Of a DNA stretch of 64,000 bases, positions 15,173 to 57,193 are shown in pieces. Each line of letters opens with the position of its first letter. The first letter of the stretch is position 1. Made by a program: the position numbers and the translations under genes. The notes under the pieces are model-generated. The model was not told where the DNA came from, did no database searches, and saw nothing but the letters and a program-made list of their open reading frames with translations. Origin of the DNA: Methyloversatilis sp. (GTDB lineage Bacteria > Pseudomonadota > Gammaproteobacteria > Burkholderiales > Rhodocyclaceae); the NCBI GenBank assembly GCA_016791045.1, contig JAEUNO010000019.1, positions 137,532-201,531 of the forward strand. The letters run 5' to 3'.

Positions 15173-15514
15173 ATGAAAATGGACAGCCAGACGCTGGATG
15201 GCGACATCACCCTGATCCGGCTGGACGGCCGGCTCGACATCGAAGGCGCGCAGACGCTGGACCAGCCCTTCACCTATCTGACCAGCACGCACCCGGCGAA
15301 GATCGCGGTCGACCTGTCGGACGTCAGTTTCGTCGCCTCGATCGGCATCCGGACGCTGCTTTCCGGCGCGCGCGGCCAGGCCTCGCGCGGCGGCAGACTG
15401 GTGCTGTTCGGTGCCCAGCCGATGGTGCTGCGTGTGCTGCAGACCGCCGGTGTCGACCAGTTGCTCACCTTGTGTACCGATCTCGACACGGCGCGCGCGG
15501 CGCTCGACGCCTGA
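15173..15514 (+). CDS. STAS-domain anti-sigma-factor antagonist-like protein
   Basis: 113 aa from ATG 15173 (SD GGGAG). LIRLDGRLDIEGAQTLDQ...DLSDVSFVASIGIRTLL, with the conserved phospho-acceptor Ser context (SFVASIG). Confidence 0.8.
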   Translation: MKMDSQTLDGDITLIRLDGRLDIEGAQTLDQPFTYLTSTHPAKIAVDLSDVSFVASIGIRTLLSGARGQASRGGRLVLFGAQPMVLRVLQTAGVDQLLTLCTDLDTARAALDA

Positions 15515-15544
15515 GCCCGCTCGGCATGCCTGCACGGGGCGCCG

Positions 15545-17308
15545 ATGCATAGCGCCCATGCGCGCCGCAGCCTGCGGCTGATCAACGACAGCGGCGCGAT
15601 TTCCGCCGCCAGCGCCTGGCTGCGCACGCTGGGCGACAGTTTCGAGCTGGGCAGCGAACTCACGTTCCGGCTCGATCTGTGCGTGTCGGAGCTGGTGGCC
15701 AACATCGTCAGCTACGCCTTCGAGGACGAGGCGCCGCACACGCTGGCACTCGATCTCATCCTCGAACCGCAGTCGGTCAAGCTGGTCATTGCCGACGATG
15801 GCTGCGAATTCGACCCGCTCGCGCTGCCCGATCCGGTCGCTCCGGCCACGCTGGAAGAGGCGAGCGTGGGCGGTCTCGGCGTGCATCTGGTGCGCCAGTT
15901 TGCCGATCAGGTCAGCTACGAGCGCGTCGGCGCGCGCAACCAGCTGACGCTCGCATGGACCCGACCCGGCCGCGCCGGACCGGCGCAGGGTCGGGCACCG
16001 ATCCGCCGCGGCATCGAACGCCGGCGCCGCCCGGCCCCAGCCTTCCCGCTGACCGCCGGCGATGGCGCGCGCATTGCCGCGGATCGGCGCAGCGGTAGCG
16101 AACGGCGGGCACTCGGTTTCATTTCCCGCATCGAACTGTTCCGCGAAGTGCCGTACGCCCTGATCGAAGGTCTGCTCGCGCACTGCCCGCAGCGCGATTA
16201 CCCCGACGAGTACGTCGTGCTGGCGCCCGGCGTATCGAACGAGCACGTGGCGCTGGTGCTGACCGGCCGGCTGCGCGTGCATCTGGATACGCCGCAGGGC
16301 GGCGATTACAGCGTGATCGCGGCGGGCGAGTGTGCCGGCGAACTGTCCATCATCGACGGCGAACCCGCCTCGGCCTGGGTGGTGGCCGAGCCCGGCACCC
16401 GTCTGCTGCTGATCGACGCCCACCAGTTCTTTTCCGATCTGCTGCCGCTGCCGCGCGTCGCGCGCAATCTGCTCGGCATGATGGCGGCGCGCATGCGCAA
16501 GACGAATCAGCAGGTGATCGACCGCGTACGAAACTCCATGCTGCTCGACCGGCTGCAGTCGGAAATGCGCACCGCGCAGGAAATCCAGACCGGCATGCTG
16601 CCGATGCGCTCGCCGCTGTTCCCCGAGCACTTCGAAATCGAGTGCGAAGCGAGCATCCAGCAGGCGCGCGAAGTGGGCGGCGATTTTTTCGATGCCTTCT
16701 TCATCGACGAGAAGCGCCTGTTCGTTGCCATCGGCGACGTGTGCGGCAAGGGCATGCCGGCCGCGCTGCTGATGATGCGCACGCTGACCACGCTGCGCTC
16801 GGAAGCGGGCCGCAAGCAGGGCCAGAAGGGCCATCTCGAACGGGTGATGGAACGCATCAACCGCAAGCTGGCGCTGAACAACGACCGCCTGCTGTTCGCC
16901 AGCCTGTTCATCGGCCTGCTGGACACCGGCAACGGCAGCTTCCGCTTTGCCAATGCCGGCCACATGCGGCCGGTCATCGCGCGCCAGGGCGAACCGGCTT
17001 CGCTGCTCAAGGTACCGCGCAACCCGATCGCCGGCATCGATCCGGCGATCGACTATGCGCTCGGCGAAACCCGGCTGGCGCGCGGCGACCTGCTGCTGCT
17101 GTATACCGATGGCGTGACCGAGGCGGAGAACGAAGCCGCCGAGCAATTCGGCGAAGCGCGCCTGCTCGCCGCCGTCACCGGCGCAGCGCGCGGCAGCGCA
17201 CTGCAGACCATAGGCGCGGTGCGCGACGCCACGCGCGCATTCTGCGGCGCGCACGCCCAGGCCGACGACATCACGCTGCTGGCGCTGCGCTTTCTCGGAC
17301 AGCCCTGA
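15545..17308 (+). CDS. Fusion protein: RsbW-like Ser kinase (HATPase_c_2), cyclic-nucleotide-binding domain and PP2C/SpoIIE phosphatase (SypE-like architecture)
   Basis: 587 aa. N-terminal CVSELVANIVSYAF...ADDGCEFDP...GGLGVHLVRQFAD. Central cNMP-binding segment (nt ~16117-16470) FISRIELFREVP...GECAGELSIIDGEPASAWVVA. C-terminal GGDFFDAF...GDVCGKGMPAALLM...NAGHMRP...LYTDGVTEA...DDITLLAL. Confidence 0.85.
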   Translation: MHSAHARRSLRLINDSGAISAASAWLRTLGDSFELGSELTFRLDLCVSELVANIVSYAFEDEAPHTLALDLILEPQSVKLVIADDGCEFDPLALPDPVAPATLEEASVGGLGVHLVRQFADQVSYERVGARNQLTLAWTRPGRAGPAQGRAPIRRGIERRRRPAPAFPLTAGDGARIAADRRSGSERRALGFISRIELFREVPYALIEGLLAHCPQRDYPDEYVVLAPGVSNEHVALVLTGRLRVHLDTPQGGDYSVIAAGECAGELSIIDGEPASAWVVAEPGTRLLLIDAHQFFSDLLPLPRVARNLLGMMAARMRKTNQQVIDRVRNSMLLDRLQSEMRTAQEIQTGMLPMRSPLFPEHFEIECEASIQQAREVGGDFFDAFFIDEKRLFVAIGDVCGKGMPAALLMMRTLTTLRSEAGRKQGQKGHLERVMERINRKLALNNDRLLFASLFIGLLDTGNGSFRFANAGHMRPVIARQGEPASLLKVPRNPIAGIDPAIDYALGETRLARGDLLLLYTDGVTEAENEAAEQFGEARLLAAVTGAARGSALQTIGAVRDATRAFCGAHAQADDITLLALRFLGQP

Positions 17309-19189: not shown

Positions 19190-21835
19190 TTGAAGATCTT
19201 CCTGTCCTACGCGTCGGAAATCCGCACGCGTGCCGAAGGCGTGAATGCCGCGCTGCAAGCCGCCGGACACGACGTATTCTTCGACCGCGAAGACCTGCCG
19301 GCCGGTCTGAACTACGACGACCGCATCCGAAGTGCCATCGAAAGCAGCGACCTGTTTGTGTTCCTGCTGTCGCCGGCAGCGGTTGCCGAAGGCCACTACA
19401 CCCGCACCGAACTGAAGATCGCCCGCCGCCGCTGGCCGGACCCGGCCGGCCACGTGCTGCCGGTGATGGTGGACGCGACGCCGTTCAGCGCCCTGCCGCC
19501 CTACCTGGGTTCGGTCACCGTACTGGTGCCGGAAGGCAATCTGGCGGCCGAGGTCGTGCTGGCGGTGGCCGATATCGAGCGGCTGCCGTCCCCTGCGCCG
19601 GCCGACCCCGCGGACGCGGTCCCGCCCCCGCCCGACATGCCCGACGCCGCACCCACCTATGCCTCGCTGAAGGTGCGCTTTTCCTATGCCGAGGCCGGCC
19701 GCTACACGGTGGACATCAACAGCCCGCCGGCGGCCGACGGATTCAGCGGCGACTGTGCGATCGACGCACCGGCAATCGAGGACGCGATGCGCGGCGCACC
19801 GGTTGGCGACACCCTGCGGCGCCCCCCCGGCGCACTGGCCCACAATGGCCTGCCCACGGCCGCTCAGGCGCGCGACGCCGGCACCCTGCTGTACAAGGCC
19901 CTGTTCGGACCGACCCTGCGACCGGGCATCGAGAACAGCCTGCGCGGCATCGATCCTCAGCAGGGCAAGGGCCTGCGCTTCGTCATCGACACCACCGACA
20001 CGCCGGAACTGGGTCGCCTGCCCTGGGAATTCCTGTACAGCCCGGAGAAGGACGACTTCCTGTTCTCCGACCGGATGAAACCGGTGGTGCGCTGGCTCGA
20101 CGTCGACGAACCCACGCCGACGCTGAGCATTTCGCCGCCGCTGCGCGTGCTCATCGCATTCGCCGCTCCGGGCGGTCTGGCGCCCTTGAGCATCGGCGAC
20201 GAACTGGCGCGGCTCGACCAGGCGCTCGCGCCGCTGACCAAGCGCGGCCTGATCGGCATCACGCGGCTGGAGAACGCGACCCTCGAGCGGCTCGACGAAG
20301 CGCTGCTGACGGTGCGCCCGCACGTGCTGCATTTCATCGGTCACGGCGACTTCAACGGCGGCGACGGTCTGCTGCTGCTGGAAAGCGACACACCGGACCG
20401 CGCCCCGGACCCGCTGACCGGACGCCGGCTCGGCGTGCTGTTGCGCAATCATCTGGCCAATCTGCGGCTGGTGTTCCTGAACAGCTGCATGGGTGGCGCG
20501 GTATCGCCGGTCGACCCGTTCGGCGGCATCGCGCAGACGCTGATTCGGCGCGGCGTGCCGGCGGTGATCGCGATGCAGTTCGCGATTCCGGACAAGGCCG
20601 CGGTCGAACTGTCGCGCCACTTCTATCGCTACCTGGCCGCCGGCCAGCCGGTGGATGCCGCGCTCACGTCGGCACGCGCCTTCCTGTTCGCCCGCGGGCA
20701 CGAGGTCGAGTGGGGCGCACCGGCGTTGCATATGCGCTCGCCGGACGGACGGCTGTTCTCGATTGCCGCCCCCGCGGTTGTTCCAGCTGCCCCCGCCCCC
20801 GCCGTTGTTCCACCCGCCATCCCGGTGGCCCTGCCCGCCGCCGAACCGGAGGCGGCCGGCCGTCAGCCCGCCGCGCCAGCCCCCGCTGCGCCGACCGTCG
20901 CGCCCGGACGTGCGCCACCCGCGCCGGCCCCCGAGCCGGAGTCTGCACCCGCCGCGGCGACGGCACCGACCGCCGCACGTTCGTCCCGGATCCTGCTGTA
21001 CGGTGCGCTCGTCATGCTGGCGCTGCTGGCCATCGGCGTCGTACTGCTGACCTTCAGCGCGTCCGAAGATGCGCCCTCTTCCGGCGAGCTCGCCGGCACG
21101 GCGCCGGCGGCCCAACAGGCAGCCCAACCCGAAACAACAGAGAAGCGCGCCCGCCGCGCAGTGGCCCAGGCGATCGCGCAGCTGCAAGCCGGCAACGATG
21201 TCGCCGCGGCCGCCACACTGCAGGAACTGCTGCAGCGCGATCCGGGTGCGCTCGAACCGGCGTGGCTCGGTGCGGACGCACAGCGCCTGAGTGCGCTGCT
21301 GCGGGACGCCTCGCAGCGTGCCGCCGACCCGGCGCTGGCCATGCTGTTTGCGCAACTGTCCGGCTCGGTGGGCAATGTGGCCGCCAGTGCGGGTGAGCCG
21401 CCCGATGCCGCCGTCGGATCCGAGATCGAACCGGCCGCGGGCGCCTTCCAGGGCGAAGCGCTGTACACGGTGCGCCGCGGCGACACGCTGGAGGGCATCG
21501 CGAAGCGGCTGCTCGGTGACGCGCGGGAATGGACGTTCATTCTCGACCGGCACAATGCCGCCAGTACGGTTGTGCCCGGACTGCGTCTGATCAATGACCC
21601 GGATTTCCTGCTGGCCGGTGAGTATCTGGCCGTGCCGGTGACCGAAGACGACGCCGGCCTGCCCGGATGGCCTTACCACGTGCAGCCCGGCGATACCCTG
21701 TGGGGCATCGCAACTCGCATGTACGGCCAGGGTCGGCTCTGGCCGCGCATCGCGGACGCCAACGCCGACCGGGTGCCCGACCCCTCCCGTCTTCAGCCCG
21801 GCCTGCTGCTGTTCGTCCCCGCCCCTGCGCGCTGA
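19190..21835 (+). CDS. Single-pass membrane protein: N-terminal TIR domain, CHAT (caspase-like) domain, Pro/Ala linker, TM helix, two C-terminal LysM domains
   Basis: 881 aa. TTG start with SD GGAG (19179-19182) at 7-nt spacing. TIR: MKIFLSYAS...DVFFDRED...SDLFVFLLSP...TRTELKIA (candidate catalytic E74, nt 19409-19411). CHAT: VLHFIGHGDF (H385, nt 20342) and LVFLNSCMGG (C433, nt 20486). TM: ILLYGALVMLALLAIGVVLLTF (nt 20990-21055). LysM1 YTVRRGDTLEGIAKRLLGD (from nt 21464) and LysM2 YHVQPGDTLWGIATRMYGQGRLWPRIADAN (from nt 21674). Confidence 0.85.
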   Translation: MKIFLSYASEIRTRAEGVNAALQAAGHDVFFDREDLPAGLNYDDRIRSAIESSDLFVFLLSPAAVAEGHYTRTELKIARRRWPDPAGHVLPVMVDATPFSALPPYLGSVTVLVPEGNLAAEVVLAVADIERLPSPAPADPADAVPPPPDMPDAAPTYASLKVRFSYAEAGRYTVDINSPPAADGFSGDCAIDAPAIEDAMRGAPVGDTLRRPPGALAHNGLPTAAQARDAGTLLYKALFGPTLRPGIENSLRGIDPQQGKGLRFVIDTTDTPELGRLPWEFLYSPEKDDFLFSDRMKPVVRWLDVDEPTPTLSISPPLRVLIAFAAPGGLAPLSIGDELARLDQALAPLTKRGLIGITRLENATLERLDEALLTVRPHVLHFIGHGDFNGGDGLLLLESDTPDRAPDPLTGRRLGVLLRNHLANLRLVFLNSCMGGAVSPVDPFGGIAQTLIRRGVPAVIAMQFAIPDKAAVELSRHFYRYLAAGQPVDAALTSARAFLFARGHEVEWGAPALHMRSPDGRLFSIAAPAVVPAAPAPAVVPPAIPVALPAAEPEAAGRQPAAPAPAAPTVAPGRAPPAPAPEPESAPAAATAPTAARSSRILLYGALVMLALLAIGVVLLTFSASEDAPSSGELAGTAPAAQQAAQPETTEKRARRAVAQAIAQLQAGNDVAAAATLQELLQRDPGALEPAWLGADAQRLSALLRDASQRAADPALAMLFAQLSGSVGNVAASAGEPPDAAVGSEIEPAAGAFQGEALYTVRRGDTLEGIAKRLLGDAREWTFILDRHNAASTVVPGLRLINDPDFLLAGEYLAVPVTEDDAGLPGWPYHVQPGDTLWGIATRMYGQGRLWPRIADANADRVPDPSRLQPGLLLFVPAPAR

Positions 21836-21942
21836 GCCCGTCACCCCCCGTTGACCCCGATCAAGGGCCGGACACCGCGTGCGCGTACTGTGGAACTGAC
21901 GCGCAACATCCATGCTGCGCGCGGCTTTCAGGGGGGAAATTG

Positions 21943-22449
21943 ATGATCCAGTACGTCACGGGCGACATTCTGCTGAGCCAGGCTCAGGTCATTGCGCACG
22001 GTATCGCGCCGCAGGAACACTTTGACCACGGTCTCGCGCTGGCGCTGCGCGAACGCTGGCCGTCGATGGCGCGCGACTATCGACACGCGCAGCGCGGCCA
22101 GCATCTGGATGCCGGCACCGTATGGTCCTGGGCCGGCGTGGACAGCGACGGCAGCACGCGCACCATCCTCAATCTGCTGACACAGAAGATGGTGGGTGAG
22201 GGTCCGGCCGCACGACCCGGCAAGGCCACGCTGGAATCGGTCAACCATGCGCTGAAGGCGCTGGCGCGCTATGCCGGCTCCACCGGTGTCACCAGCATCG
22301 CACTGCCACGACTGGCCACGGGTGTCGGCGGGATGGACTGGGCGGACGTGAAGCCGCTGGTCGAACAGCATCTGAGCCCGCTGGGCGTTCCCGTCATCGT
22401 CTACGAGACCTATCACCCGGGCGTGGCTGCAAACGAACGACTGACCTAG
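21943..22449 (+). CDS. Stand-alone Macro domain protein (ADP-ribose binding/processing fold)
   Basis: 168 aa from ATG 21943 (G-rich SD GGGGGGAAA). MIQYVTGDILLSQAQVIAHGIAPQEHFDHGLALALRERWP...VTSIALPRLATGVGGMDW. The 5' extension of the track ORF (from 21667) overlaps the previous gene and looks non-coding. Confidence 0.85.
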   Translation: MIQYVTGDILLSQAQVIAHGIAPQEHFDHGLALALRERWPSMARDYRHAQRGQHLDAGTVWSWAGVDSDGSTRTILNLLTQKMVGEGPAARPGKATLESVNHALKALARYAGSTGVTSIALPRLATGVGGMDWADVKPLVEQHLSPLGVPVIVYETYHPGVAANERLT

Positions 22450-24379: not shown

Positions 24380-25498
24380 ATGAAGAACGCCCCCCTACCC
24401 GCCAACGAAGTAAAACGTCTGCACGCGCTGCACCGCCTCGACCTTCTGGATACGGAGCCGGAACCCGCGTTCGACGACGTGACGATGCTCGCGGCGCAGA
24501 TCTGCGGCACGCCGATCGCACTGGTGTCGCTGGTGGATGCCGAGCGGCAGTGGTTCAAGTCGCGTTGCGGACTGCAGGTGTGCGAAACATCGCGCGAGGT
24601 GTCGATGTGCGCGCATGCCTTCACCGAACCGGACGGTGTTCTCGTCGTGCCGGATGCAGCGCTCGACGAACGCTTCGCCGACAGCCCGCTGGTGGTCGGC
24701 GAACCATACATCCGCTTCTATGGCGGTGTGGTGCTGTGGTCGCCGGACCGGCTGCCGCTGGGCGCGCTGTGTGTGATCGACCATCGGCCGCGTACGCTGG
24801 ACGCGTCGCAGCAACGCGCACTGAAGGCACTCGCGCGACAGGCCGAGGCGCAGATGCATCTGCGGCTGCGCGTGCGCGAACTGCGCGAAACATCACTCGC
24901 GCTGCAGCGCCAGAAATCGCGCCTGATGCAGCAGCACCACGCACTGGAAGAGCGCTGCGAACAACTTGCGGTCGAGGCCCGCGTCGATGCGCTGACCGGG
25001 GTCGGCTCGCGGCGCGACGCGGACCATCGACTCGGCGATGAATTCCGCGTCGCTCTCACGCTGAACCTGCCGCTGTCGGTCGCACTGATCGATATCGACC
25101 GCTTCAAGCAGGTGAACGACACCTACGGCCACGCACGGGGCGACGAAATGCTGCGTCAGGTCGCACGAAAGCTGGCGTCGGAATTGCGCAGCGACGACTA
25201 TCTCGCGCGTTTCGGCGGAGAGGAATTCGTCGTCATGCTGCCCAACACGCCGGCCGAACTGGCGCGGAAGATTTCCGAGCGCCTGCGCCTTGCAGTCGAG
25301 ACAGGACCGTGGCAAGCGCCGGACGAACTGACGGTGAGCATCGGCTTCGCATGCGCCGACGCGCACGCGGACTCGATAGAAACCCTGGTCGCAGCAGCCG
25401 ACGCCGCGCTCTACCAGGCCAAAGGCAATGGCCGCAACCGGGTGGTGGCGGCAAATGACATGCCAGCCGGCCAGAGCCCACTTCGGGTCGTACGCTGA
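24380..25498 (+). CDS. GAF-domain diguanylate cyclase (GGDEF) with I-site
   Basis: 372 aa. GAF-like LDTEPEPAFDDVTMLAAQICGTPIALVSLVD, a coiled-coil segment, then RSDDYLARFGGEEF, an RxxD I-site five residues before GGEEF. Confidence 0.9.
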   Translation: MKNAPLPANEVKRLHALHRLDLLDTEPEPAFDDVTMLAAQICGTPIALVSLVDAERQWFKSRCGLQVCETSREVSMCAHAFTEPDGVLVVPDAALDERFADSPLVVGEPYIRFYGGVVLWSPDRLPLGALCVIDHRPRTLDASQQRALKALARQAEAQMHLRLRVRELRETSLALQRQKSRLMQQHHALEERCEQLAVEARVDALTGVGSRRDADHRLGDEFRVALTLNLPLSVALIDIDRFKQVNDTYGHARGDEMLRQVARKLASELRSDDYLARFGGEEFVVMLPNTPAELARKISERLRLAVETGPWQAPDELTVSIGFACADAHADSIETLVAAADAALYQAKGNGRNRVVAANDMPAGQSPLRVVR

Positions 25499-36333: not shown

Positions 36334-36744
36334 TCAATACCCTTTGGGGCTGTAGCTGGGCCCGCTGTCCGGTGTCTCCGCAGGACGGGTGCGGGCGACG
36401 TGCCAGGTGCCGCCCAGACCGTCGCCGCTGGCCTGTCCGGGTTTCACATCGCCGGCGAAGTAGTACAGCGGCTTGCCGCGATGCGCCCATTGCAGGCTGC
36501 CATCGTCGCGGCGCAACAGCGGGAAGGCCGGTTTCGCCGAGGCATCGGGCGGCGCGGCATACGGCGGCCACTGCACGGCACACTCATCCTTGCAGGCGCT
36601 TGCGCCCGCGCTGTCGCGATCGAACGTGTACAGCACCCGGCCGGCCGGGTCGGTCAGCCGTCCGTCTGCGCCCTCGACCGGCTGCGCCAGCGCTGTCGGG
36701 CTGCTCGCCAAAATGACGATGCACAGCATGCCTCTCGATAACAT
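36334..36744 (-). CDS. Secreted COG4315-type protein (repeat with Yx(FWY)xxD motif)
   Basis: 136 aa. Signal MLSRGMLCIVILASSPTALAQP. Duplicated GRVLYTFDRD / GKPLYYFAGD motifs and ECAVQWPP. Confidence 0.8.
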   Translation of the reverse strand: MLSRGMLCIVILASSPTALAQPVEGADGRLTDPAGRVLYTFDRDSAGASACKDECAVQWPPYAAPPDASAKPAFPLLRRDDGSLQWAHRGKPLYYFAGDVKPGQASGDGLGGTWHVARTRPAETPDSGPSYSPKGY

Positions 36745-36768
36745 GTCGATCTCCCGGTCAGTGACTGG

Positions 36769-36790
36769 GCGCAGGCACGCGTGCCTGCGC
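36769..36790. repeat. 22-bp perfect palindrome in a divergent promoter region
   Basis: GCGCAGGCACGCGTGCCTGCGC equals its own reverse complement. Lies between the lipoprotein gene (start 36744) and the first PilZ-motif gene (start 36902). Confidence 0.9.
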
Positions 36791-36901
36791 GGGTTGCGAT
36801 GCCGCGATCGGTCAAAAAAAGCGCGCGATCAACGCGGGTGCGCGCACGCAAACAGCGGCACGCACATAGAATCAGGTATCGGTATCCGCTGCAAGATCGC
36901 A

Positions 36902-38452
36902 ATGCACCCGTTCGCCCTGCCTGCCACCGCACTGACGCACCCGCCCGAGCTCGCCACGGCCCGGGCGGCGCGCGACTGGCTGCTGCAGCTCGACGGCACT
37001 CAGCCGCTGAATGCGCAGGCCAGCCTGCTCGGCCAGATCAACCTGCTGAACCGGTATCGCATGACCGCGGGCGAGCGATTGCGCGTGATCGAAGAGTTGC
37101 GCGATGCCGTGCTGCACGCGCAAGCCGGCGCGTCGAGCCGCTTTGCAGGGCGGCCGCTGCCGCTGTCGGGCGGCGAGCGCGCCGCCTTCGATGCCAATCA
37201 GGCGATGTGGGATGCGCTGGCGACATCGTACCTGCATTGCCTCGCCGCCGCGCTCGATGGCGACGGTGGCGTCGCCGGGCAGGTCGGACTGATCGCACAC
37301 CGCGCGCTGAGCGCGCTGTCGCAGATGCAGCTCGACGCACTGCGCGCCGCCCATCTGCCGCCGTCCGGCTACTGGCGGCGCACGCATGCCTGCTACGAGG
37401 CGGCGGAAAAGCTCGGGGCGGCCGAACGCAAGATCCAGGACGACACGCTGAACGACGAACGCCCCACCAGCGTGCGCGCCGCCTATGTGCTGTGCGTGCT
37501 GATGCACACCGCCAGCCCGTTCGGCCTGACGCACCGCCAGCTGCGCATGCTGCACCGCTGGCTCGGCAAGTGGTCGGGCAAGGTGGCACTGCTCGACAGC
37601 GCGATCCACCAGTGTGCGCTGCCGCCACTGATGCTCGACCTGTCGAGCGATGAGGCGATCGCGCGTGCCGCACAGCGTGAGAGCTCGCTGCGCTGGCTGG
37701 TGCTGGACGAGTTTTCGCACGGCATCCGCAAACGCCTGGGATTGCTTGCGCAGGGTGAAACGCCGGTCGCGCTGCGTCTGGGCGACGAGCTGAGCCCGGC
37801 CCAGGCAGACCGGCTGCTGCGCCATCTGCATACGCACTGCTGCCGCGGCGGCCTGACGCGTGCCGAACCCAGGCGGCCGCTGCAGCAGAACGCATCGGTC
37901 GTGGTCGGCATGCTGGCCGTGCAGCAGTTTCTTGGCGGCGGCACCCCGGCGCTCGACGCCGTGCAATCGGCCGGTCCGCCGGTCACCACTGCCACCGGGT
38001 ATCTGGTGGAGGACTGGCGCATCCTTGATGACAGTGCCACTGGTCTGCGGCTGGGTCGTCGCATCGGCGGCGACGGCATGCGCGTCAGCAACGGCATGCT
38101 GCTGGCGGTACGGCCGGACAATGCCCCGCAGTTCATGCTTGCCCACATCTGCTGGGTCATGGCAAACGGCATCGAACTGCAGATCGGCATCAGCCTGCTT
38201 GCCGGCACGCCCCAGCCGGTCGGACTCGCCCGCGCGCCCGACGGCCAGGGCGAACATCAGGGACACGGGCTGCTGATGCCTGCGGTCGAGCGCATCGGCC
38301 AGCCGGAATGCGTCGCGCTGCCCTCAGGCTGGTATCGCAAGTCACGCGACATCCTGCTGTCAGGTGATGCAGGCCGGCGGCGTGTACGGCTGGTTGAATC
38401 GCTGGAACGCGGCGCCGATTTCGACCTCGCCCGCATCGAGCCGGCAGCATGA
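36902..38452 (+). CDS. Large uncharacterised protein with a C-terminal PilZ-like module (paralogue 1)
   Basis: 516 aa from ATG 36902. RAEPRR (RxxxR, nt 37859-37873) followed by the beta-strand-like VVVGM. ILDDSATGLRL (DxSxxG, nt 38027-38044). The track ORF start at 36473 is an extension. Confidence 0.7.
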   Translation: MHPFALPATALTHPPELATARAARDWLLQLDGTQPLNAQASLLGQINLLNRYRMTAGERLRVIEELRDAVLHAQAGASSRFAGRPLPLSGGERAAFDANQAMWDALATSYLHCLAAALDGDGGVAGQVGLIAHRALSALSQMQLDALRAAHLPPSGYWRRTHACYEAAEKLGAAERKIQDDTLNDERPTSVRAAYVLCVLMHTASPFGLTHRQLRMLHRWLGKWSGKVALLDSAIHQCALPPLMLDLSSDEAIARAAQRESSLRWLVLDEFSHGIRKRLGLLAQGETPVALRLGDELSPAQADRLLRHLHTHCCRGGLTRAEPRRPLQQNASVVVGMLAVQQFLGGGTPALDAVQSAGPPVTTATGYLVEDWRILDDSATGLRLGRRIGGDGMRVSNGMLLAVRPDNAPQFMLAHICWVMANGIELQIGISLLAGTPQPVGLARAPDGQGEHQGHGLLMPAVERIGQPECVALPSGWYRKSRDILLSGDAGRRRVRLVESLERGADFDLARIEPAA

Positions 38453-40062
38453 CCGACGTTCCACCTCTGCCCGGCACGCTGAATTACCGCGACGCTCGCC
38501 AGTGCAAGGCATTGATCGCGGAATTGCCGCTGACCAATGTGCCGCGGGTACGCGATACGCTGACCCGGATGCTGTACGGCCTGCGGCAGACGCCACCGCG
38601 CAGTCCGGATTACCTCGACGTGCTCGAAGCCATGCGCGCACCGCTGCATTTCCTGCAGGAAAGCCTGGCGGTGCGCTACGGCAGCCGGCCGGTGATTCCG
38701 GGCGGCGCCGAAGACCCGGTGCTGCGCCAGGTCGTTGCCCTGTGGCTGGGCATGGCGCAGGCGTATGCGCAGGCGGCCGAGCAGACCGGCGTGCACCCGC
38801 TGTCCGATACGCAACTTGCGCTGGTCTGCCAGCGCTGCGTGCTGTATGCCGGCCGGGCGGTGATCGAATATTTCCGGGCCCGGCGGACCATCCCGCGCGG
38901 CATGTGGCTCGAACTGCACGGCTACTTCAGCACGGCCGACGAATGGGGATTCGCGACGCAGCCGGTGGCCGACAGCCTGAAGGAAGGCGGCTATCCCCAG
39001 AGCGCAGCCGAGTCCTACTGCTGCGTGCTGCTGATCGACCTGTCCAACCCGTATGGCCGCAGCCCGCGCGAGTTCGAATGGGTCTGCCGCTGGGCCGACC
39101 AGTACGCGAGCCTGACCGAAATCATGCCGGTGTTCGGCGGCACCGACGCCAAGACCTATGCCATCGACCTGAATCGCGACAACGGCGCCAAGCCGCTGGA
39201 GGTCTTCCCCCGTACGCCATCGCTGCGCCGGCTCGGTTCGGCCCGGCTGGCCAGCGAGATCGAGCGCGTCGTGGCGGGGCTCAAACAGGGTCTGTCACCG
39301 GAACATCTCGGTCTGGGCGCCGATTGCCATCCTGTTTCGGCAGGCCGCCTGCTGTTGCTGCTTTACAAGCCGTGGTGCCACGCGGCCAATCCGCGCCGCT
39401 TCCAGCGGCGGGTCGGCGCGGGCGACATCGATATCGCACTCGGCTTCGAAGCCATGCACTTCCTGATCAGCGGCAGCGAGTTCGTGCAGCCACCACCGGC
39501 ACGCATCTACAGCCACAGCGACTTCATCGATATCGCCACCTTCGGCGAACGCGCCCACGATGGCGCCGGTCTGGCGGTCAGGCAGGCCAGCGCGCGGGCC
39601 CACTATCCGACCCAGCGCTGGGCCATGCTCGACCACAGCGTGATGGGTTATCGCCTGCGCGCGCCACCGGACACCGGCCCGGTCGAGCACGCACAGATCG
39701 TTGCCGTGTTCGGCCCGGACGCAGAGCACTGGCGACTCGCGCGCGTGTCCTGGTTGATGGTCGAAGCCGACGCCCGCCTGCTGGTCGGACTGCATGTGCT
39801 GCCCGGCACGCCACGTGCCATTGCGATACGGCCTAAGGCCGAAGAGGGCGCGCCGGCCGAGCGCTTCGTTCGCGCCTTCCTGCTGCCGTCCGTACAGGTG
39901 ATGGGCGAGGAGGCGACACTGGTCCTGCCGCGCGGCTGGTTCCAGCAGGACCGTACGCTGGAAATCTATCTGAACGACAACTTGCTCGGCGTGACGCTTA
40001 CGCGGCTGAATACCTTCGGCATCAACTACGAACGGGTGGCCTTCAGCGAACTGACTAAGTAG
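38449..40062 (+). CDS. Large uncharacterised protein with a C-terminal PilZ-like module (paralogue 2)
   Basis: 537 aa. ATGA overlap with paralogue 1. RRFQRR (nt 39394-39411) followed by DIDIALGF. MLDHSVMGYRL (DxSxxG, nt 39631-39648). Same overall layout as the upstream gene. Confidence 0.7.
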   Translation: MTDVPPLPGTLNYRDARQCKALIAELPLTNVPRVRDTLTRMLYGLRQTPPRSPDYLDVLEAMRAPLHFLQESLAVRYGSRPVIPGGAEDPVLRQVVALWLGMAQAYAQAAEQTGVHPLSDTQLALVCQRCVLYAGRAVIEYFRARRTIPRGMWLELHGYFSTADEWGFATQPVADSLKEGGYPQSAAESYCCVLLIDLSNPYGRSPREFEWVCRWADQYASLTEIMPVFGGTDAKTYAIDLNRDNGAKPLEVFPRTPSLRRLGSARLASEIERVVAGLKQGLSPEHLGLGADCHPVSAGRLLLLLYKPWCHAANPRRFQRRVGAGDIDIALGFEAMHFLISGSEFVQPPPARIYSHSDFIDIATFGERAHDGAGLAVRQASARAHYPTQRWAMLDHSVMGYRLRAPPDTGPVEHAQIVAVFGPDAEHWRLARVSWLMVEADARLLVGLHVLPGTPRAIAIRPKAEEGAPAERFVRAFLLPSVQVMGEEATLVLPRGWFQQDRTLEIYLNDNLLGVTLTRLNTFGINYERVAFSELTK

Positions 40063-54354: not shown

Positions 54355-55574
54355 CCACCGCCGCCACGCTGTGCCGTTCGCCATCGACGGGCGCGTCGTT
54401 CCCGACCTTCGACGGACTCGATGTCGCGGCGCTCGCCGATCGCGTCGGCAGCACACCGTTCTTCGCCTACGACGCCGCGGCGATCGAATGGCGCATCGAC
54501 ACGCTGCGCGCGCAGCTGCCCGCGGACGCGCTGCTCTGTTATGCGGTGAAAGCCAATCCGCTGCCGGCGTTGCTGCGCCGGCTGGCACCACGGCTGGATG
54601 GCGCCGACGTCAGCTCCGGCGAGGAGATACGGCGCGCACTGGCGGCCGGTTTCGACGGTGCGCAACTGGGTTTCACCGGTCCGGGCAAAAGCGATGCGGA
54701 CCTGACGCTTGCGGTGCGCCAGGGCGTGCGCCTGTGCGCGGAATCGATCGGGGAGATCGGTCGCATCGCGCGCATCGCGGCACGCGTAGACCTGCCGGCG
54801 CGGGTGGCACTGCGCGTCAATCCGGATGTTGCCGTGTCCGGCACGCAGGTGCGCATGAACGAGGCGGGTGTATTCGGCATCGACAGCAGCCAGCTTCCGG
54901 CGGCACTGCGCGCAGTGCGCGACCACCGACTCGTATTCGCAGGCTTCCACTACTACTGCGCGTCGCGCATGCTCGACGCCGATGCAGTGATCGCGCTGCA
55001 TGCGTTCTGCACGGCCGACGCGCTGCGTGCCGCCGATGACGCCGGGCTGACGCTCGAATGGCTCAATCTGGGTGGCGGCTTCGGCATCCCGGCCAGTGCG
55101 GACGAGGCACCGCTCGACATGGCTGCGGTCACCGCGCACCTGCACCACGTCGACGCACGGCTGAAGGCAGCGCATCCGGCTGCGCGCCTCGCGCTCGAAC
55201 CGGGTCGTTACCTGGTCGGCGAGGCCGGCATCTACGTCTGTCGCATCCTCGACCGGAAGACGGTGCGCGGACGCACCTGGCTGGTGGCTGACGGCGGCGC
55301 CCATCACCACCTGCACGCCACCCTGCAGCCCGATCGTACGCACGCCGCCAATCTTCCGATGACGCTGCTGCAGGCCGTACCGGACACCGGGGCGGAATGC
55401 GTCAGCATCGCCGGGCCGCTATGCGCGCCCTTCGATGTGCTGGCACGCGACATCACGCTGCCGGTCGCGCAACCGGGCGACCTGCTCGTGGTGTTCCAGT
55501 CCGGCGCGTATGGCGCGAGCGCGAGCCCGGTGAATTTCCTGGGTCATCCGCCGGCCGCGGAGATCGTGCTGTGA
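54351..55574 (+). CDS. PLP-dependent decarboxylase, Orn/DAP/Arg decarboxylase (fold-type III) family
   Basis: 407 aa from ATG 54351 (ATGA overlap with arsR). PLP-Lys context CYAVKANP, GGGFGIP, LEPGRYLVGEAG, and C-terminal GPLCAPFD...FQSGAYGAS. Confidence 0.88.
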   Translation: MTTAATLCRSPSTGASFPTFDGLDVAALADRVGSTPFFAYDAAAIEWRIDTLRAQLPADALLCYAVKANPLPALLRRLAPRLDGADVSSGEEIRRALAAGFDGAQLGFTGPGKSDADLTLAVRQGVRLCAESIGEIGRIARIAARVDLPARVALRVNPDVAVSGTQVRMNEAGVFGIDSSQLPAALRAVRDHRLVFAGFHYYCASRMLDADAVIALHAFCTADALRAADDAGLTLEWLNLGGGFGIPASADEAPLDMAAVTAHLHHVDARLKAAHPAARLALEPGRYLVGEAGIYVCRILDRKTVRGRTWLVADGGAHHHLHATLQPDRTHAANLPMTLLQAVPDTGAECVSIAGPLCAPFDVLARDITLPVAQPGDLLVVFQSGAYGASASPVNFLGHPPAAEIVL

Positions 55575-57193
55575 CGCCCGGCGCGCGCCACCTGCTTACA
55601 CTGGGCCTGATGATGACTTCCGCGCACCCAGCCCTGCCCGCGTCCGACGCCTTGTCCGGCGGACGACTCGGTCTGCATGACGCGACCGGTTTTCGCGCCG
55701 TCAGGGGCGTCTGCTCAGGATGCGCAGCAGCGCCGCAGGCACTGTGGTACTTCCAGGACGACTGGATCGCCGTGCCCCAGCCACCGGCGAGCGGATTCGA
55801 TCCCGCGCTGGCTGCGCAGGACGATGTGCGCACCTGGGCGCAGGCGCAGGACACGCGCGCCGAAGCGACGCATCCGCCGCTGATCTGGATCGGCTCGCCC
55901 CATGTCCTGACCGGCGCGCGCCTGACTGCCGACGGCACCCGGCTCGACTTCGGCGACAGCGGCGGCGACAGCGGGAGCCTCGCCCTTTCGCTGGTGCCGC
56001 AGCTGGCGTCGAACGTGTCCTGGTTCAACGCCGACAGCGTGAGGTGGCTGCAGGGCCAGCCGCTGACCTTGCGCGGAGAGGCGAGTGCCGGCGGCTTCAC
56101 CGCACGCACCCTCTGGCCGCACGGTTTCGACATCGACCTCACCGCATTGCGCGCCGACCCGCTGCGCGACGGCGAAACGCTGGCCACGCTGGTGCGTGCC
56201 CACGAGGGCGGTGCGCGCCAGCCACCATCGGTGCGCCTGCTGTGGGAACGCACGCCCGGCGCGGCGCGCGCAGCCGGCGGCAAGCCGGTGCTGGCGCTGG
56301 TGCTCAATGGCGCCCAGGGCGACGATGACGAAGCGCACGGCGGTCATTTCGCCCTGGCCACCGGCGTACTCGGCGAACACGGCCAGTGGAACGACTGGCT
56401 GGTGAACAATTTCTACAACCTCGATGCCTGGAGCGAAAAGGGCATCGTGGCCGCCACGCTGCCGATGGACGCCTACCTGACCGATCTCAACGCAGGTCAG
56501 TCCTGGTACCGACCTTCCGCGGTGCTGGTCGCCGTGCTGAGCGAGCCGCGCGCCGCCGCACGCGTGCAGCAGGGCCTGGACCGCGTGTTCAGCCACTTCT
56601 ACCGGCACGACTTCAGCTACCGCCACGCCACCGCCAATTGCGCCGGCATCAGTCTCGACACGCTGCGTTCTCTCGGCTGGGCGGTGCCGCAGCTGGGCCC
56701 GACATCGAAACTGAAGGCCTGGCTCGGCCTGCCCTGGATGGCGCTCAAGGAGCGGAGCCTGGCCAGCGGCCTGCAGGCCTTCGACTACATGAGCGCGGAA
56801 CGCAGCGGCCTGTTTCCGTTCGTCGCCTTCAATGTCGCCGGCAGCGATCTGCTCGGCCGGCTGACTGCCGGCAAGGCGGCCGGACAGGGCCTCGAGCGGC
56901 TGCTGGCCGACGACGTCGAGGCGCTGCTGTACATCCACGTCCCGCAGATCCCGTCGTCGCGTGCCTTCGGCAGCGCGCCGGTCACGTCCTATGACGAGTA
57001 CGCCGCGCGGGTGCCGGCCGAGCGCTCGCAATGGATCGTCCGTCCGGCCCCGCCGCGGCCCTTCCCCGACGCGCTGCGCGACGCATCGGCGCCGAAGGAG
57101 CCCCCGCCGGCGTCGCGCCGCGCGCTCATCGTCTGGCTGGTGGCGCTCGGCGCGGTCGCGCTGTGGCTGCTGAGCCGGCTGTTCCGCCGCTGA
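55571..57193 (+). CDS. Uncharacterised protein with a C-terminal membrane anchor (start GTG 55571 or ATG 55610)
   Basis: About 530-540 aa. GTGA overlap with the decarboxylase stop. Motifs EAHGGHFALATGV and YRHATANCAGISLDTLRSLG. C-terminal TM helix ALIVWLVALGAVALWLLSRLF. No family confidently recognised. Confidence 0.65.
   Translation: MTPGARHLLTLGLMMTSAHPALPASDALSGGRLGLHDATGFRAVRGVCSGCAAAPQALWYFQDDWIAVPQPPASGFDPALAAQDDVRTWAQAQDTRAEATHPPLIWIGSPHVLTGARLTADGTRLDFGDSGGDSGSLALSLVPQLASNVSWFNADSVRWLQGQPLTLRGEASAGGFTARTLWPHGFDIDLTALRADPLRDGETLATLVRAHEGGARQPPSVRLLWERTPGAARAAGGKPVLALVLNGAQGDDDEAHGGHFALATGVLGEHGQWNDWLVNNFYNLDAWSEKGIVAATLPMDAYLTDLNAGQSWYRPSAVLVAVLSEPRAAARVQQGLDRVFSHFYRHDFSYRHATANCAGISLDTLRSLGWAVPQLGPTSKLKAWLGLPWMALKERSLASGLQAFDYMSAERSGLFPFVAFNVAGSDLLGRLTAGKAAGQGLERLLADDVEALLYIHVPQIPSSRAFGSAPVTSYDEYAARVPAERSQWIVRPAPPRPFPDALRDASAPKEPPPASRRALIVWLVALGAVALWLLSRLFRR

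Follow-up and report, generated by a model that had tools for sequence, protein, structure and literature searches.

What might a single bacterial protein do that joins a TIR domain and a CHAT domain, through one transmembrane (TM) helix, to a pair of LysM domains? This question is raised by an open reading frame (ORF) at positions 19190..21835 of the 64,000-nucleotide stretch of Methyloversatilis sp. DNA analyzed here (the window); the ORF and all of the features described below are on the + strand. Both NAD-cleaving TIR domains and caspase-like CHAT protease domains are known from regulated cell death. No description of the TIR-CHAT-TM-LysM wiring was found in the literature searched, in agreement with the first-pass annotation of this DNA, which knew of no characterized system built in this way. 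The 881-aa product looks like an uncharacterized, putative outside-in alarm receptor.

The ORF starts with a TTG codon, with GGAG 8-11 nt upstream, and this start was also chosen by the gene callers in 10 related contigs. Its GC content at the three codon positions (0.76/0.53/0.83) is typical of real genes in a 67% GC window. The Pfam matches of the protein, to TIR_2, CHAT, and LysM, are all well over their cut-offs. The AlphaFold2 (AF2) model, with a mean pLDDT of 81.9, delimits the TIR domain at aa 1-131, a small beta subdomain at aa 156-199, CHAT at aa 224-525, a disordered Pro/Ala-rich linker at aa 535-600, the TM helix at aa 600-623, a helical bundle at aa 650-734, and LysM folds at aa 758-814 and 825-877. 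This architecture is not a product of chance, because the same three-domain arrangement recurs in over 100 independent clusters defined at 90% identity. Pfam, hydropathy, and AF2 uphold the first-pass annotation on the ORF, the order of the domains, and the presence of one TM helix. The positions that it gave were also all correct, namely a candidate catalytic Glu (E74, nt 19409-19411), a CHAT His and Cys (H385, nt 20342; C433, nt 20486), a hydrophobic helix (nt 20990-21055, which is aa 601-622), and two LysM repeats, which begin at aa ~758 and ~825-829.

The TIR domain (aa 1-131; 19190..19582), predicted to be cytoplasmic, matches TIR_2 (PF13676) over aa 3-97 (E 2.5e-19; 70.4 bits against a gathering cut-off of 28). 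Its model, with pLDDT values mostly above 90, retrieved AbTir (7uxu) in Foldseek with a TM-score of 0.80 and an rmsd of 2.8 over 131 columns, with further matches to the TIR domains of SARM1 and SPARTA. E74 (19409..19411), the candidate catalytic Glu in a Y70-x-x-x-E74 context, is found in the AF2 model in the helix after the strand at aa 55-60, and the catalytic Glu is expected in the helix after strand C. Both E74 and Y70 are retained in 105/106 of the aligned full-length homologs on which all conservation counts are based. It should be noted that the candidate equivalence of E74 with SARM1 E642 and PsTIR E79 is one of motif and position only, and that the sequence alignments of this TIR domain to SARM1 end at aa 65-67, short of E74.

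The CHAT domain (aa 224-525; 19859..20764) matches PF12770 over aa 229-497 (E 5.9e-32; 111.7 bits against a gathering cut-off of 24), and the 106 homologs have a mean identity of 72% to the window protein over aa 229-516. The closest solved CHAT, by profile (1.8e-18) as well as by fold (E 1e-12), is the SAVED-CHAT protein of a Haliangium type III-B CRISPR/CBASS hybrid (8tl0); Foldseek also returned Craspase Csx29, DdvA (E 5.8e-8), and separases. H385 (20342..20344; HFIGHGDF) and C433 (20486..20488; FLNSCMG) are each retained in 106/106 homologs and align to positions 355 and 402 of the 8tl0 chain. Given a 20-residue offset between chain and protein numbering (the offset that maps C422 also gives H375), these positions are H375 and C422 of SAVED-CHAT, a mutationally proven dyad whose mutation abolishes activity. 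The catalytic dyad proposed in the first-pass annotation is supported. Ahead of the CHAT core, the small beta subdomain (aa 156-199; 19655..19786) has strands at aa 156-166, 172-177, and 185-189 in the AF2 model. It is kept with CHAT in distant relatives, as tblastn matches in other phyla begin at aa ~153-157. A low-confidence loop at aa 207-217 (19808..19840) carries a nearly invariant R210-R211 pair; any pseudo-substrate or cleavage role for this loop would be speculative.

CHAT is followed by a disordered, Pro/Ala-rich tether (aa 526-600; 20765..20989), a flexible stretch of ~75 aa that separates it from the TM helix. Ala or Pro accounts for 51 of the 84 residues at aa 517-600, the pLDDT of the tether is below 50, and its length differs among homologs. 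Outside the Pro/Ala linker, only the TM helix (aa 601-622; 20990..21055) yields a strongly hydrophobic 19-mer; its Kyte-Doolittle value is 2.81, and the highest value in the rest of the protein is 1.75. Its flanks have a net charge of +2 on the N-side and -3 on the C-side (family means +2.3 and -1.3), and the N flank is the more positive one in 104/106 homologs, so that the N-in/C-out topology first proposed for this protein extends to the family. No signal peptide or other strongly hydrophobic segment was found across the homologs. The LysM side is thus predicted from sequence to be periplasmic and the TIR domain cytoplasmic, as is CHAT because it lies ahead of the TM helix.

The predicted periplasmic part begins with a spacer and the helical bundle (aa 623-757, helices at aa 650-734; 21056..21460). 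The bundle is the most variable module and is present one to three times in homologs; its TPR-like Foldseek matches were not significant. LysM 1 (aa 758-814; 21461..21631) contains a long insert, and LysM 2 (aa 825-877; 21662..21820; Pfam match at aa 829-877) is of the YgaU/Kbp type. PF01476 matches in two stretches (E 1.8e-12; 47.4 bits against a gathering cut-off of 20.9), and both domains adopt beta-alpha-alpha-beta folds in both structure models. The closest sequence relative is the Kbp/YgaU LysM (for LysM 2, profile match to Kbp 7pvc, 6.9e-12). Kbp/YgaU acts in K+ sensing. The window LysM domains, being of the YgaU/Kbp and phage-tail-X types, belong to kinds with documented roles beyond peptidoglycan binding, which weakens the original equation of LysM with peptidoglycan sensing. 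The modeled LysM domains form a packed pair, which best matches the ectodomains of plant LysM receptor kinases (AtCERK1 4eby, E 5e-4, 134 columns, rmsd 3.6), which lends some support to the receptor analogy drawn in the first-pass annotation.

The family is found, under generic names only, in Rhodocyclales, where its distribution is patchy, in several Gammaproteobacteria, and in a few other MAGs. Throughout, its members keep the helical module and the two LysM domains. The N part of the Methylomonas protein is 78-79% identical to those of Propionivibrio and Cognatazoarcus, while that of Methyloversatilis is only ~60% identical, identities that indicate horizontal transfer of the family across classes. 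Variants have gained extra modules on both sides of the membrane; one (L020) has an added cyclase, FHA, and FGE-sulfatase, and another (P0120) has DUF4062 and Big_2. The C-terminal module was not seen on other effector types in the best 150 representatives, and no full-length copies were found on plasmids or phages. The nearest CHAT clade (L027-L078) is 34-44% identical over aa ~153-530, the region to which its match to the window protein is confined. Many of its members have one TM helix 20-70 aa after CHAT and then an FGE-sulfatase or beta-propeller domain, and others have NACHT/WD40 domains. Five proteins of ~430 aa (L038, L039, L041, L042, and L044) have a TM helix and almost no ectodomain. 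TIR and LysM are absent from the 25 most frequent Pfam families of the 50 nearest CHAT relatives, and these CHAT-TM and CHAT-NACHT-WD40 proteins are uncharacterized as well.

Comparison of the window DNA with five Methyloversatilis genomes (L001-L004 closest, L019 more distant) revealed a mosaic gene. Identity among strains is 95-100% in the flanks, TIR, and CHAT, while the extracytoplasmic half exists as discrete alleles of 97, 91, 80, and 46% identity; discrete allele classes are also seen among strains with identical OlsB. The recombining, hypervariable cassette (20750..21900) comprises the linker, the TM helix, the ectodomain, and a 3' intergenic stretch. DNA identity upstream of it is mostly 0.83-0.99 for L001-L004; inside, it is 0.41-0.91 for L001-L003 and 0.39-0.72 for L019, with a minimum of 0.82 for L004; past the cassette, at nt 21950, it is back to ~0.93 for L001-L004. 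Against L003, for example, amino acid identity is 98.5% for TIR, 98.0% for CHAT, 34.8% for the helical part, and 59.8% for LysM. The dS values are 3-5 times higher inside the cassette (0.9-1.3) than outside (0.26-0.30), which shows that alleles have been replaced and have not drifted only. The TIR and CHAT half is under strong purifying selection (dN/dS 0.02-0.13, versus 0.14-0.58 in the periplasmic modules). The two halves have also been exchanged by recombination across the family: P0027 and P0061 have N halves 98.7% and C halves 62.6% identical, and P0027 and P0032 have N halves 87% and C halves 99.7% identical. The first-pass annotation had proposed that the state of the peptidoglycan gates the protein. 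This gained no support; the whole extracytoplasmic half varies, above all the helical module, and variability between such close strains points to a variable ligand or antagonist and not to invariant peptidoglycan. It is important to note that, with ectodomain dN/dS below 1, no arms race need be invoked, since recombination together with relaxed constraint could account for the variability.

The gene does not lie in a defense island. The neighbors in the window are OlsA and a Macro-domain gene (168 aa, DarG/TARG1-like by profile; 21943..22449), whose product lacks TM helices. The Macro gene follows the TIR-CHAT-LysM gene in all Methyloversatilis loci and is absent in every other lineage. The linkage is therefore limited to that genus, and the Macro protein is a possible genus-specific accessory. 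Five lineage contexts have no conserved partner gene in common, which means that the protein must be able to act alone. No defense genes or island were found around the gene, either in the window or in five other lineage contexts, and the neighbors are housekeeping genes; integrase and IS91 fragments are nearby only in Methylomonas. Typical defense genes are often variably present. This gene is in 10/10 contigs with identical OlsB, and each of the five Methyloversatilis species genomes that were recovered also has it; its composition and GC content are native. PADLOC gave domain-level matches only, to SAVED_CHAT, SAVED_TIR, and ThsB, and no whole-system match in its 2023 release, which predates type IV Thoeris. 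The gene is thus fixed in its genus and not part of a defense island. Neither is it a core gene in conserved synteny with division or peptidoglycan genes; synteny is restricted to within lineages, and the housekeeping neighbors are unrelated to those functions.

Type IV Thoeris also combines a TIR domain, catalytically active in that system (PsTIR E79; the candidate E74 here), with a caspase-fold Cys protease, ThsE, and abortive infection there depends on both activities (Rousset et al., bioRxiv 10.1101/2024.10.24.620036). That system is a two-gene cytoplasmic operon with a diffusible N7-cADPR signal, whereas the window protein has both domains in one ORF, a CHAT-clade protease, a membrane anchor, a periplasmic LysM ectodomain, and no identifiable N7-cADPR sensor domain. 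The two-gene operon of type IV Thoeris is absent here, the neighbors being OlsA and Macro. Thoeris types I-III were rejected since there were only weak partial ThsB matches (PADLOC, E 6.6e-5 to 0.02) and no SIR2, SLOG, or Macro-TM effector, the adjacent Macro protein lacking TM helices. The SAVED_CHAT match is confined to the CHAT part of the model (positions 101-301 of 498). In the AF2 model, the stretch between aa 132 and 223 is too short to hold a SAVED domain, and no cyclic-oligonucleotide synthase was found near the gene; the window protein differs from SAVED-CHAT in being membrane-bound, with TIR and LysM and without SAVED, and a CBASS or type III CRISPR SAVED-CHAT system was excluded. 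DdvA of Myxococcus xanthus (PDB 8rot, PMC11506125) is also single-pass, with a CHAT fold and an envelope-to-anti-phage link. However, its TPR-CHAT part is periplasmic (the reversed topology), it has an incomplete active site, it acts by releasing an ECF sigma factor, and it lacks TIR and LysM. A DdvA-type anti-sigma factor was ruled out, the window protein having a TIR domain and not a zinc-binding anti-sigma domain at its N-terminus and a cytoplasmic CHAT.

We tentatively favor, at somewhat less than an even chance, a self-contained single-pass transmembrane receptor-effector for conflict or stress, in which events at the ectodomain would cluster and activate TIR and CHAT. The LysM pair would hold the ectodomain on the peptidoglycan layer, and the helical module, or the added FGE-sulfatase or Ig-like domain in variants, would meet a variable periplasmic ligand such as a phage protein for entry or lysis, a toxin from a competitor, or fragments released from the wall. 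Binding of the ligand, or lost tethering, would then cluster the molecules in the membrane. In TIR NADases, oligomerization forms a composite active site, and activation of SAVED-CHAT by oligomerization is documented; clustering could likewise join TIR domains into a composite NADase site and CHAT domains into an active protease. As output, NAD+ would be cleaved and/or an ADPR-derived signal made, and cytoplasmic targets would be proteolyzed, so that the affected cell would stop growing or die. The TIR product may activate CHAT in cis (compare type IV Thoeris), or the two may be parallel effectors. This reading is favored by the architecture and topology, the invariant catalytic residues, the immune-protease and NADase-TIR structural relatives, the TIR-to-caspase-like precedent of type IV Thoeris, and the partnerless gene. 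It is also favored by the ectodomain cassette, the N/C exchange, the cross-class transfer, the accreted modules, the CERK1-like LysM pair, and the CHAT relatives with a TM helix and a C-terminal domain. Against it are the lack of a defense island or whole-system PADLOC match, the native composition, the fixation in the genus, the lack of plasmid or phage copies, the ectodomain dN/dS below 1, the YgaU-type LysM roles, and the C-terminal module not being found with other effector types.

A rather unlikely alternative is an envelope-coupled regulatory protease with a housekeeping or developmental role, like HetF of Anabaena, and no part in cell death or immunity. CHAT would cleave one or a few specific cytoplasmic regulators, the helical and LysM part would target it to sites of wall synthesis or division, and TIR would tune activity via NAD+ or serve as an interaction module. 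HetF, CHAT(1-555)-TM-TPR, shares the plan of an N-terminal cytoplasmic CHAT, one TM helix, and a C-terminal helical region; it is a divisome protease found at midcell and septa that binds FtsI and has functional ties to the machinery of peptidoglycan synthesis (PMC8406250), and it cleaves a specific substrate, PatU3 (PMC9457339). Among NCBIfam models, the CHAT part also matches HetF best (NF045509, E 4.4e-21), but at 74.9 bits against an equivalog cut-off of 1200, which rules out an orthologue. While genus fixation among housekeeping genes, native GC, and purifying selection on TIR and CHAT would suit such a role, HetF is a developmental and division factor without TIR or LysM, and the window family is mosaic, patchy in Rhodocyclales, and transferred across classes. 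Cassettes of 46-97% identity in near-identical strains would be unexpected for an anchor to invariant peptidoglycan, and the neighbors are neither division nor peptidoglycan genes. To our knowledge, catalytically intact bacterial TIR domains are almost always parts of conflict systems.

A conflict effector with cytoplasmic sensing, in which the ectodomain is only a membrane or wall anchor, seems comparably improbable. The TIR domain, the beta subdomain, or the R210-R211 loop would be the sensor, for a trigger such as a phage protein or a nucleotide, and the tether would limit the site of protease and NADase action or keep the two apart until triggering. The variability would then stem from relaxed constraint, or from escape from inhibitors in the periplasm or from phages to which the ectodomain serves as a receptor. 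Sensing is cytoplasmic in most known TIR and CHAT systems, and the ectodomain dN/dS does not exceed 1. The relatives with almost no ectodomain, and the conserved beta subdomain and nearly invariant arginines between TIR and CHAT, point the same way. On the other hand, a TM helix alone would suffice as an anchor, yet LysM and the helical module are retained and extra ligand-binding domains such as FGE-sulfatase and Big_2 accreted, and the ectodomain dS shows allele replacement beyond drift. Least probable is a TIR domain that is a non-enzymatic, homotypic adaptor recruiting another TIR protein, with CHAT the sole catalytic output. TIR adaptors are well known in animals, and a candidate partner of 327 aa (TIR_2, Pro linker, TM helix, ectodomain) is encoded 1.3-4.8 kb downstream in 6 Zoogloeaceae loci. 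No such TIR-TM protein was found in the window, however, or conserved outside that one lineage, and the near-complete retention of E74 in its Y-x-x-x-E context and the closeness of the TIR fold to the NADases AbTir and SARM1 argue for an enzyme.

The favored receptor-effector would follow the same logic of a glycan-binding or repeat ectodomain, one TM helix, and a cytoplasmic signaling domain switched on by ligand-induced association as the plant LysM receptor kinases (CERK1, NFP, LYK3) and Toll-like receptors (TLRs). CERK1-type receptors have three LysM domains, whereas the window protein has two, with no disulphide-locked array demonstrated, and the known receptors signal through a kinase or adaptor where an NADase and a protease are predicted here. 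The resemblance is functional and architectural and does not imply common descent of the whole receptor. The TIR domain of the window protein is on the cytoplasmic side, as it is in TLRs.

The TIR-CHAT-LysM ORF (19190..21835, + strand) begins with TTG, ends with TGA, and encodes 881 aa. A GGAG motif lies 8-11 nt 5' of the start, and the codon-position GC content (0.76/0.53/0.83) is as in genuine genes of this 67% GC window. The Pfam matches to TIR_2 (aa 3-97, E 2.5e-19), CHAT (aa 229-497, E 5.9e-32), and LysM (two stretches, E 1.8e-12) were all far over the gathering scores. In an AlphaFold2 model of the full protein, with 75 homologs as input (mean pLDDT 81.9), the TIR domain spans aa 1-131 and is followed by a small beta subdomain at aa 156-199 and the CHAT domain at aa 224-525. 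A disordered Pro/Ala tether (aa 535-600) then leads into the TM helix (aa 600-623), beyond which lie a helical bundle (aa 650-734) and two LysM folds. The positions that the first-pass annotation had given for E74, H385, C433, the TM segment (nt 20990-21055), and the starts of the two LysM domains were all correct. In the stretch from the beta subdomain to the CHAT core, the model has a loop of low confidence (aa 207-217; window 19808-19840), with the family consensus G-x-A-R-R and an almost invariant R210-R211 pair. As pure speculation, an Arg-directed protease could use this loop as a pseudo-substrate or for self-cleavage.

We identified the gene as a mosaic with an exchangeable outer half, which is a new finding of this analysis. 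The window was compared with five Methyloversatilis genomes by sliding-window DNA identity. For the four closest genomes (L001-L004), identity was mostly 0.83-0.99 over the flanks, TIR, and CHAT, while it was lower throughout for the more distant L019. At nt about 20750, which is the end of CHAT, identity fell to 0.41-0.91 in L001-L003, and it was back to about 0.93 at nt 21950; in L004, the dip went no lower than 0.82. Against L003, amino acid identity was 98.5% for TIR (dS 0.30), 98.0% for CHAT (dS 0.26), 34.8% for the helical module (dS 1.29), and 59.8% for LysM (dS 0.89). The dN/dS values were 0.02-0.13 in the two cytoplasmic domains (TIR and CHAT), compared with 0.14-0.58 in the periplasmic modules. 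In strains with N-terminal parts that are 95-100% identical, the outer halves form discrete classes of 97-100%, 91%, 80%, and 46% identity. The outer half has undergone allele replacement and not faster drift alone. The mosaicism of N and C halves holds family-wide; the homolog P0027 shares 98.7% identity with P0061 over the N half and 62.6% over the C half, whereas with P0032 it shares 87% and 99.7%, respectively.

The modules themselves also vary. The helical unit is present in one to three copies (1-3) among homologs. In P0120, a metagenomic protein of 873 aa, DUF4062, which we take to be a TIR-like domain, replaces TIR_2, and Big_2 and Ig-like domains are found with a single LysM outside the membrane. 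A 1672-aa variant from a gammaproteobacterial MAG (L020 8001-13016) has a single TM at aa 1072, preceded by TIR, CHAT, a class III nucleotide cyclase, FHA, and an acidic linker, and followed by a helical unit, an FGE-sulfatase domain, and two LysM domains. Peptidoglycan damage, which the first-pass annotation had put forward, may be the trigger, but the differences between strains in the outer half speak for recognition or evasion of something more variable than peptidoglycan. Natural ectodomain alleles on cytoplasmic halves that are 95-100% identical constitute a ready-made specificity experiment.

The predicted cytoplasmic enzyme domains are, by comparison, strongly conserved. In the alignment of 106 full-length family members, E74 is kept in 105 and the H385/C433 dyad in all 106 (106/106). 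Mean identity to the query over these members is 66% for TIR, 72% for CHAT, 25-28% for the linker, TM, and helical part, and 44% for LysM. A PDB profile search placed the CHAT domain next to SAVED-CHAT (8tl0, 1.8e-18). The query His and Cys align to 8tl0 chain positions 355 and 402, which, with a constant offset of 20, correspond to SAVED-CHAT H375 and C422, the dyad whose mutation abolishes activity. Foldseek likewise retrieved 8tl0 (E 1e-12) for CHAT, then Craspase Csx29, DdvA, and separases, and for TIR it retrieved AbTir (7uxu, TM 0.80), SARM1, and SPARTA. From motif, position, and invariance only, E74 is a candidate counterpart of the catalytic Glu of SARM1 or PsTIR. It should be noted that the phmmer and hhalign alignments with SARM1 end at aa 65-67, short of E74, the candidate counterpart of SARM1 E642, because SARM1 carries an insert after strand C.

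The first-pass annotation had also proposed a single TM with N-in/C-out orientation, and the predictions agree. The segment at aa 601-622 (Kyte-Doolittle 2.81) is the sole strongly hydrophobic window outside the Pro/Ala linker, with flanks of +2 on the N side and -3 on the C side. In 104/106 members, the N flank exceeds the C flank in positive charge (means +2.3 vs -1.3), and neither a signal peptide nor a second hydrophobic segment was found in any of the 106. A cytoplasmic N-terminus and a single TM together strongly predict a periplasmic location for both the LysM pair and the helical module.

When the C-terminal 286 aa were modeled separately (mean pLDDT 84.7), the two LysM domains packed together. 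The best PDB matches of this model are the ectodomains of plant LysM receptor kinases, namely AtCERK1 (4eby, E 5e-4), then CERK6, NFP, LYS11, and LYK3; fungal Ecp6 matches as well. The helical bundle had no significant Foldseek match, with TPR-like matches at E above 0.5 only. The LysM sequences belong to the YgaU/Kbp and phage-tail-X type. Since some YgaU/Kbp-type LysM members do not bind peptidoglycan, we infer wall binding here and describe the pair as putatively wall-binding. When a profile built from the TM, helical, and LysM module was run against 1.84 billion representatives, it yielded 94,515 matches, mostly tandem YgaU-type LysM. The few full-module matches were family fragments, LysM-only proteins, and the anti-sigma-like P0207, and among them, in this LysM-dominated search, no fusion of the outer module to other effectors was seen. 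In P0207 (495 aa, metagenomic), a zf-HC2-like anti-sigma N-terminus (H-x3-C-x2-C) is followed by a TM and by YgaU-type LysM domains, three in number; the protein is an independent case of such domains on the outer side of a transmembrane signaling protein.

A search of 5.8 billion proteins gave 344 matches, among which the TIR_2, CHAT, and LysM architecture accounts for >100 clusters at 90% identity. The family is found in Methyloversatilis (84-99% identity to the window protein), in Azoarcus, Denitromonas, Nitrogeniibacter, Cognatazoarcus, and Propionivibrio, in Methylomonas, Thiodiazotropha, and Chromatiales, and in a few MAGs labeled Chloroflexota or Binatia. The source names are generic only ("CHAT domain-containing protein", "TIR domain protein", "YgaU"), and no bacterial protein combining CHAT, TIR, and LysM is described in the literature searched. 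Over the N-terminal half, the Methylomonas protein shares 78-79% identity with its Propionivibrio and Cognatazoarcus homologs and only about 60% with that of Methyloversatilis, which itself belongs to Rhodocyclales; on this sequence evidence, the family has moved between classes. Carriage on mobile elements was rejected, as no full-length copy was present among 72,556 plasmids or 50,697 phages. Members lacking TIR (P0019, P0106, P0113, P0116, and P0117) were set aside because they start within conserved regions and look like truncated gene calls. In one MAG member (L026 8001-9567), a 1-nt frameshift breaks the reading frame at aa 344/345, reflecting a pseudogene or an assembly error.

The next-nearest CHAT relatives comprise 50 loci (L027-L078) from many phyla, with matches covering aa about 153-530, and in many of them CHAT is followed at a distance of 20-70 aa by a single hydrophobic segment. 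The domains that accompany CHAT are FGE-sulfatase (8), NACHT (6), PD40/SGL propellers (5), and WD40 (3). The frequency of a TM and a C-terminal domain after CHAT points to a wider, apparently undescribed class of single-pass CHAT-TM proteins, of which the TIR-CHAT-LysM family is the TIR- and LysM-bearing branch. In these relatives, FGE-sulfatase or a beta-propeller is often C-terminal to the TM, others carry NACHT or WD40, and several are only about 430 aa long, with CHAT, a TM, and little else.

To our knowledge, nearly all characterized bacterial systems with TIR and caspase-like components sense infection inside the cell, and they split sensing, signaling, and killing over several proteins. 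Here, two apparently intact enzyme domains inside the cell are connected by a long flexible tether and one TM to an outer part that is wall-binding in type and swapped between strains, with no conserved partner gene. TIR NADases form their active site by self-association. SAVED-CHAT is switched on by oligomerization, and in type IV Thoeris a TIR product activates a caspase-like protease (10.1101/2024.10.24.620036). We favor, at a little under an even chance, a mechanism in which an ectodomain event would change the clustering of the protein in the membrane, and altered clustering would switch on NAD+ cleavage or signaling plus proteolysis within the same cell. By analogy, the protein would act much as type IV Thoeris and SAVED-CHAT do, in a fused and membrane-anchored form; it is a member of neither, as type IV Thoeris consists of two genes, and SAVED-CHAT has a SAVED domain that this one-gene system lacks. 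A more specific and rather doubtful extension is that the family represents bacterial pattern-recognition-type receptors with a LysM-held, swappable specificity cassette. A periplasmic intruder (for example, a protein for phage entry or lysis, a toxin from a competitor, or a wall fragment) would then cause clustering and directly activate the TIR NADase and caspase-like protease of the same polypeptide. If true, this would amount to a single-protein counterpart of TLR or LysM-receptor signaling, fused to its own death effectors, and a rare instance of outside-in immune sensing in bacteria. The receptor logic would be, by analogy, that of TLRs and LysM receptor kinases, and two enzymes under a periplasmic, wall-bound, strain-variable ectodomain would mean that bacteria share it with animals and plants.

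The function of the protein is wholly inferred, and its genomic context is housekeeping-like. An envelope-coupled regulatory protease resembling HetF is an unlikely alternative. HetF is a CHAT-TM-TPR protein that binds FtsI (PMC8406250) and has the same topology; however, the protein studied here scores 74.9 bits against the HetF model, with a cut-off of 1200, and hence is not a member. Nor does it belong with DdvA, whose topology is reversed (PMC11506125). Were it a HetF-like housekeeping protease, envelope-coupled CHAT proteolysis would extend beyond cyanobacteria, and bacterial TIR domains would gain a non-immune role. Domain shuffling of this kind is well known in bacterial conflict proteins. 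A conflict effector whose ectodomain serves as an anchor only has a similarly low probability. That the TIR domain is an adaptor only is quite improbable, given how consistently its candidate Glu is kept. The architecture and its cassette-like ectodomain are striking and directly testable. With one gene, three point mutants, and natural allele swaps, this compact system would allow the study of how induced proximity at the membrane activates TIR and caspase-fold enzymes.

No defense island surrounds the gene in the window, and no Rfam or tRNA match was found there. The 5' neighbors encode OlsB-like and OlsA-like acyltransferases of the ornithine-lipid type, and a Macro gene of 168 aa lies on the other side; further out come RapZ, a STAS/PP2C partner-switching pair, a photolyase-related gene, GshA, GshB, and other housekeeping genes. 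A foreign origin in this genome was rejected, as GC and skew of the region are native. The gene order is the same in five Methyloversatilis species genomes, and the TIR-CHAT-LysM gene is present in 10/10 contigs encoding an identical OlsB protein. Outside the genus (Denitromonas, Propionivibrio, Methylomonas, and two metagenomic lineages), the neighbors are wholly different. An all-against-all comparison of ORFs within 6 kb at 27 loci found no conserved partner gene and only lineage-restricted synteny blocks; there is therefore no universal partner. On the same grounds, the Macro gene, OlsBA, and the Zoogloeaceae 381-aa and TIR-TM genes were rejected as general system parts.

The Macro gene (21943-22449, + strand) directly follows the TIR-CHAT-LysM gene; its true start is the ATG at 21943, although the ORF listing extends it to 21667. 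The product is DarG/TARG1/SCO6735-like (NCBIfam DarG 1.9e-21, under its cut-off; PDB 5e3b, 7e-9) and could trim ADP-ribose products of the TIR domain. The two genes are linked only in Methyloversatilis. In Zoogloeaceae, a 381-aa protein without a Pfam match is always encoded after the family gene (L079 12910-14055, + strand). A 327-aa protein (L079 17540-18523, - strand), composed of TIR_2, a Pro linker, a TM, and a C-terminal region of ~130 aa predicted outside the membrane, is encoded 1.3-4.8 kb downstream and retained even with a different intervening gene (L014); it may be a second membrane-anchored TIR partner. These neighbors also occur at L007, L009-L012, L014, and L022.

Three window ORFs of 659, 537, and 598 aa (36473-40062 and 55397-57193, + strand) have gene-like codon GC and no Pfam match at E 1e-5. 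Upstream of the OlsBA genes, the STAS-domain gene (about 15211-15552) adjoins a gene (15545-17308, + strand) for a 587-aa protein with HATPase_c_2 (RsbW-like), cNMP-binding, and SpoIIE/PP2C domains, and the two look like a cyclic-nucleotide-controlled partner-switching module. A GAF-GGDEF gene (24380-25498, + strand) is present in the window, L003, and L004 and missing in the otherwise syntenic L001, L002, L085, and L086, a presence/absence polymorphism 2.5 kb from the TIR-CHAT-LysM gene.
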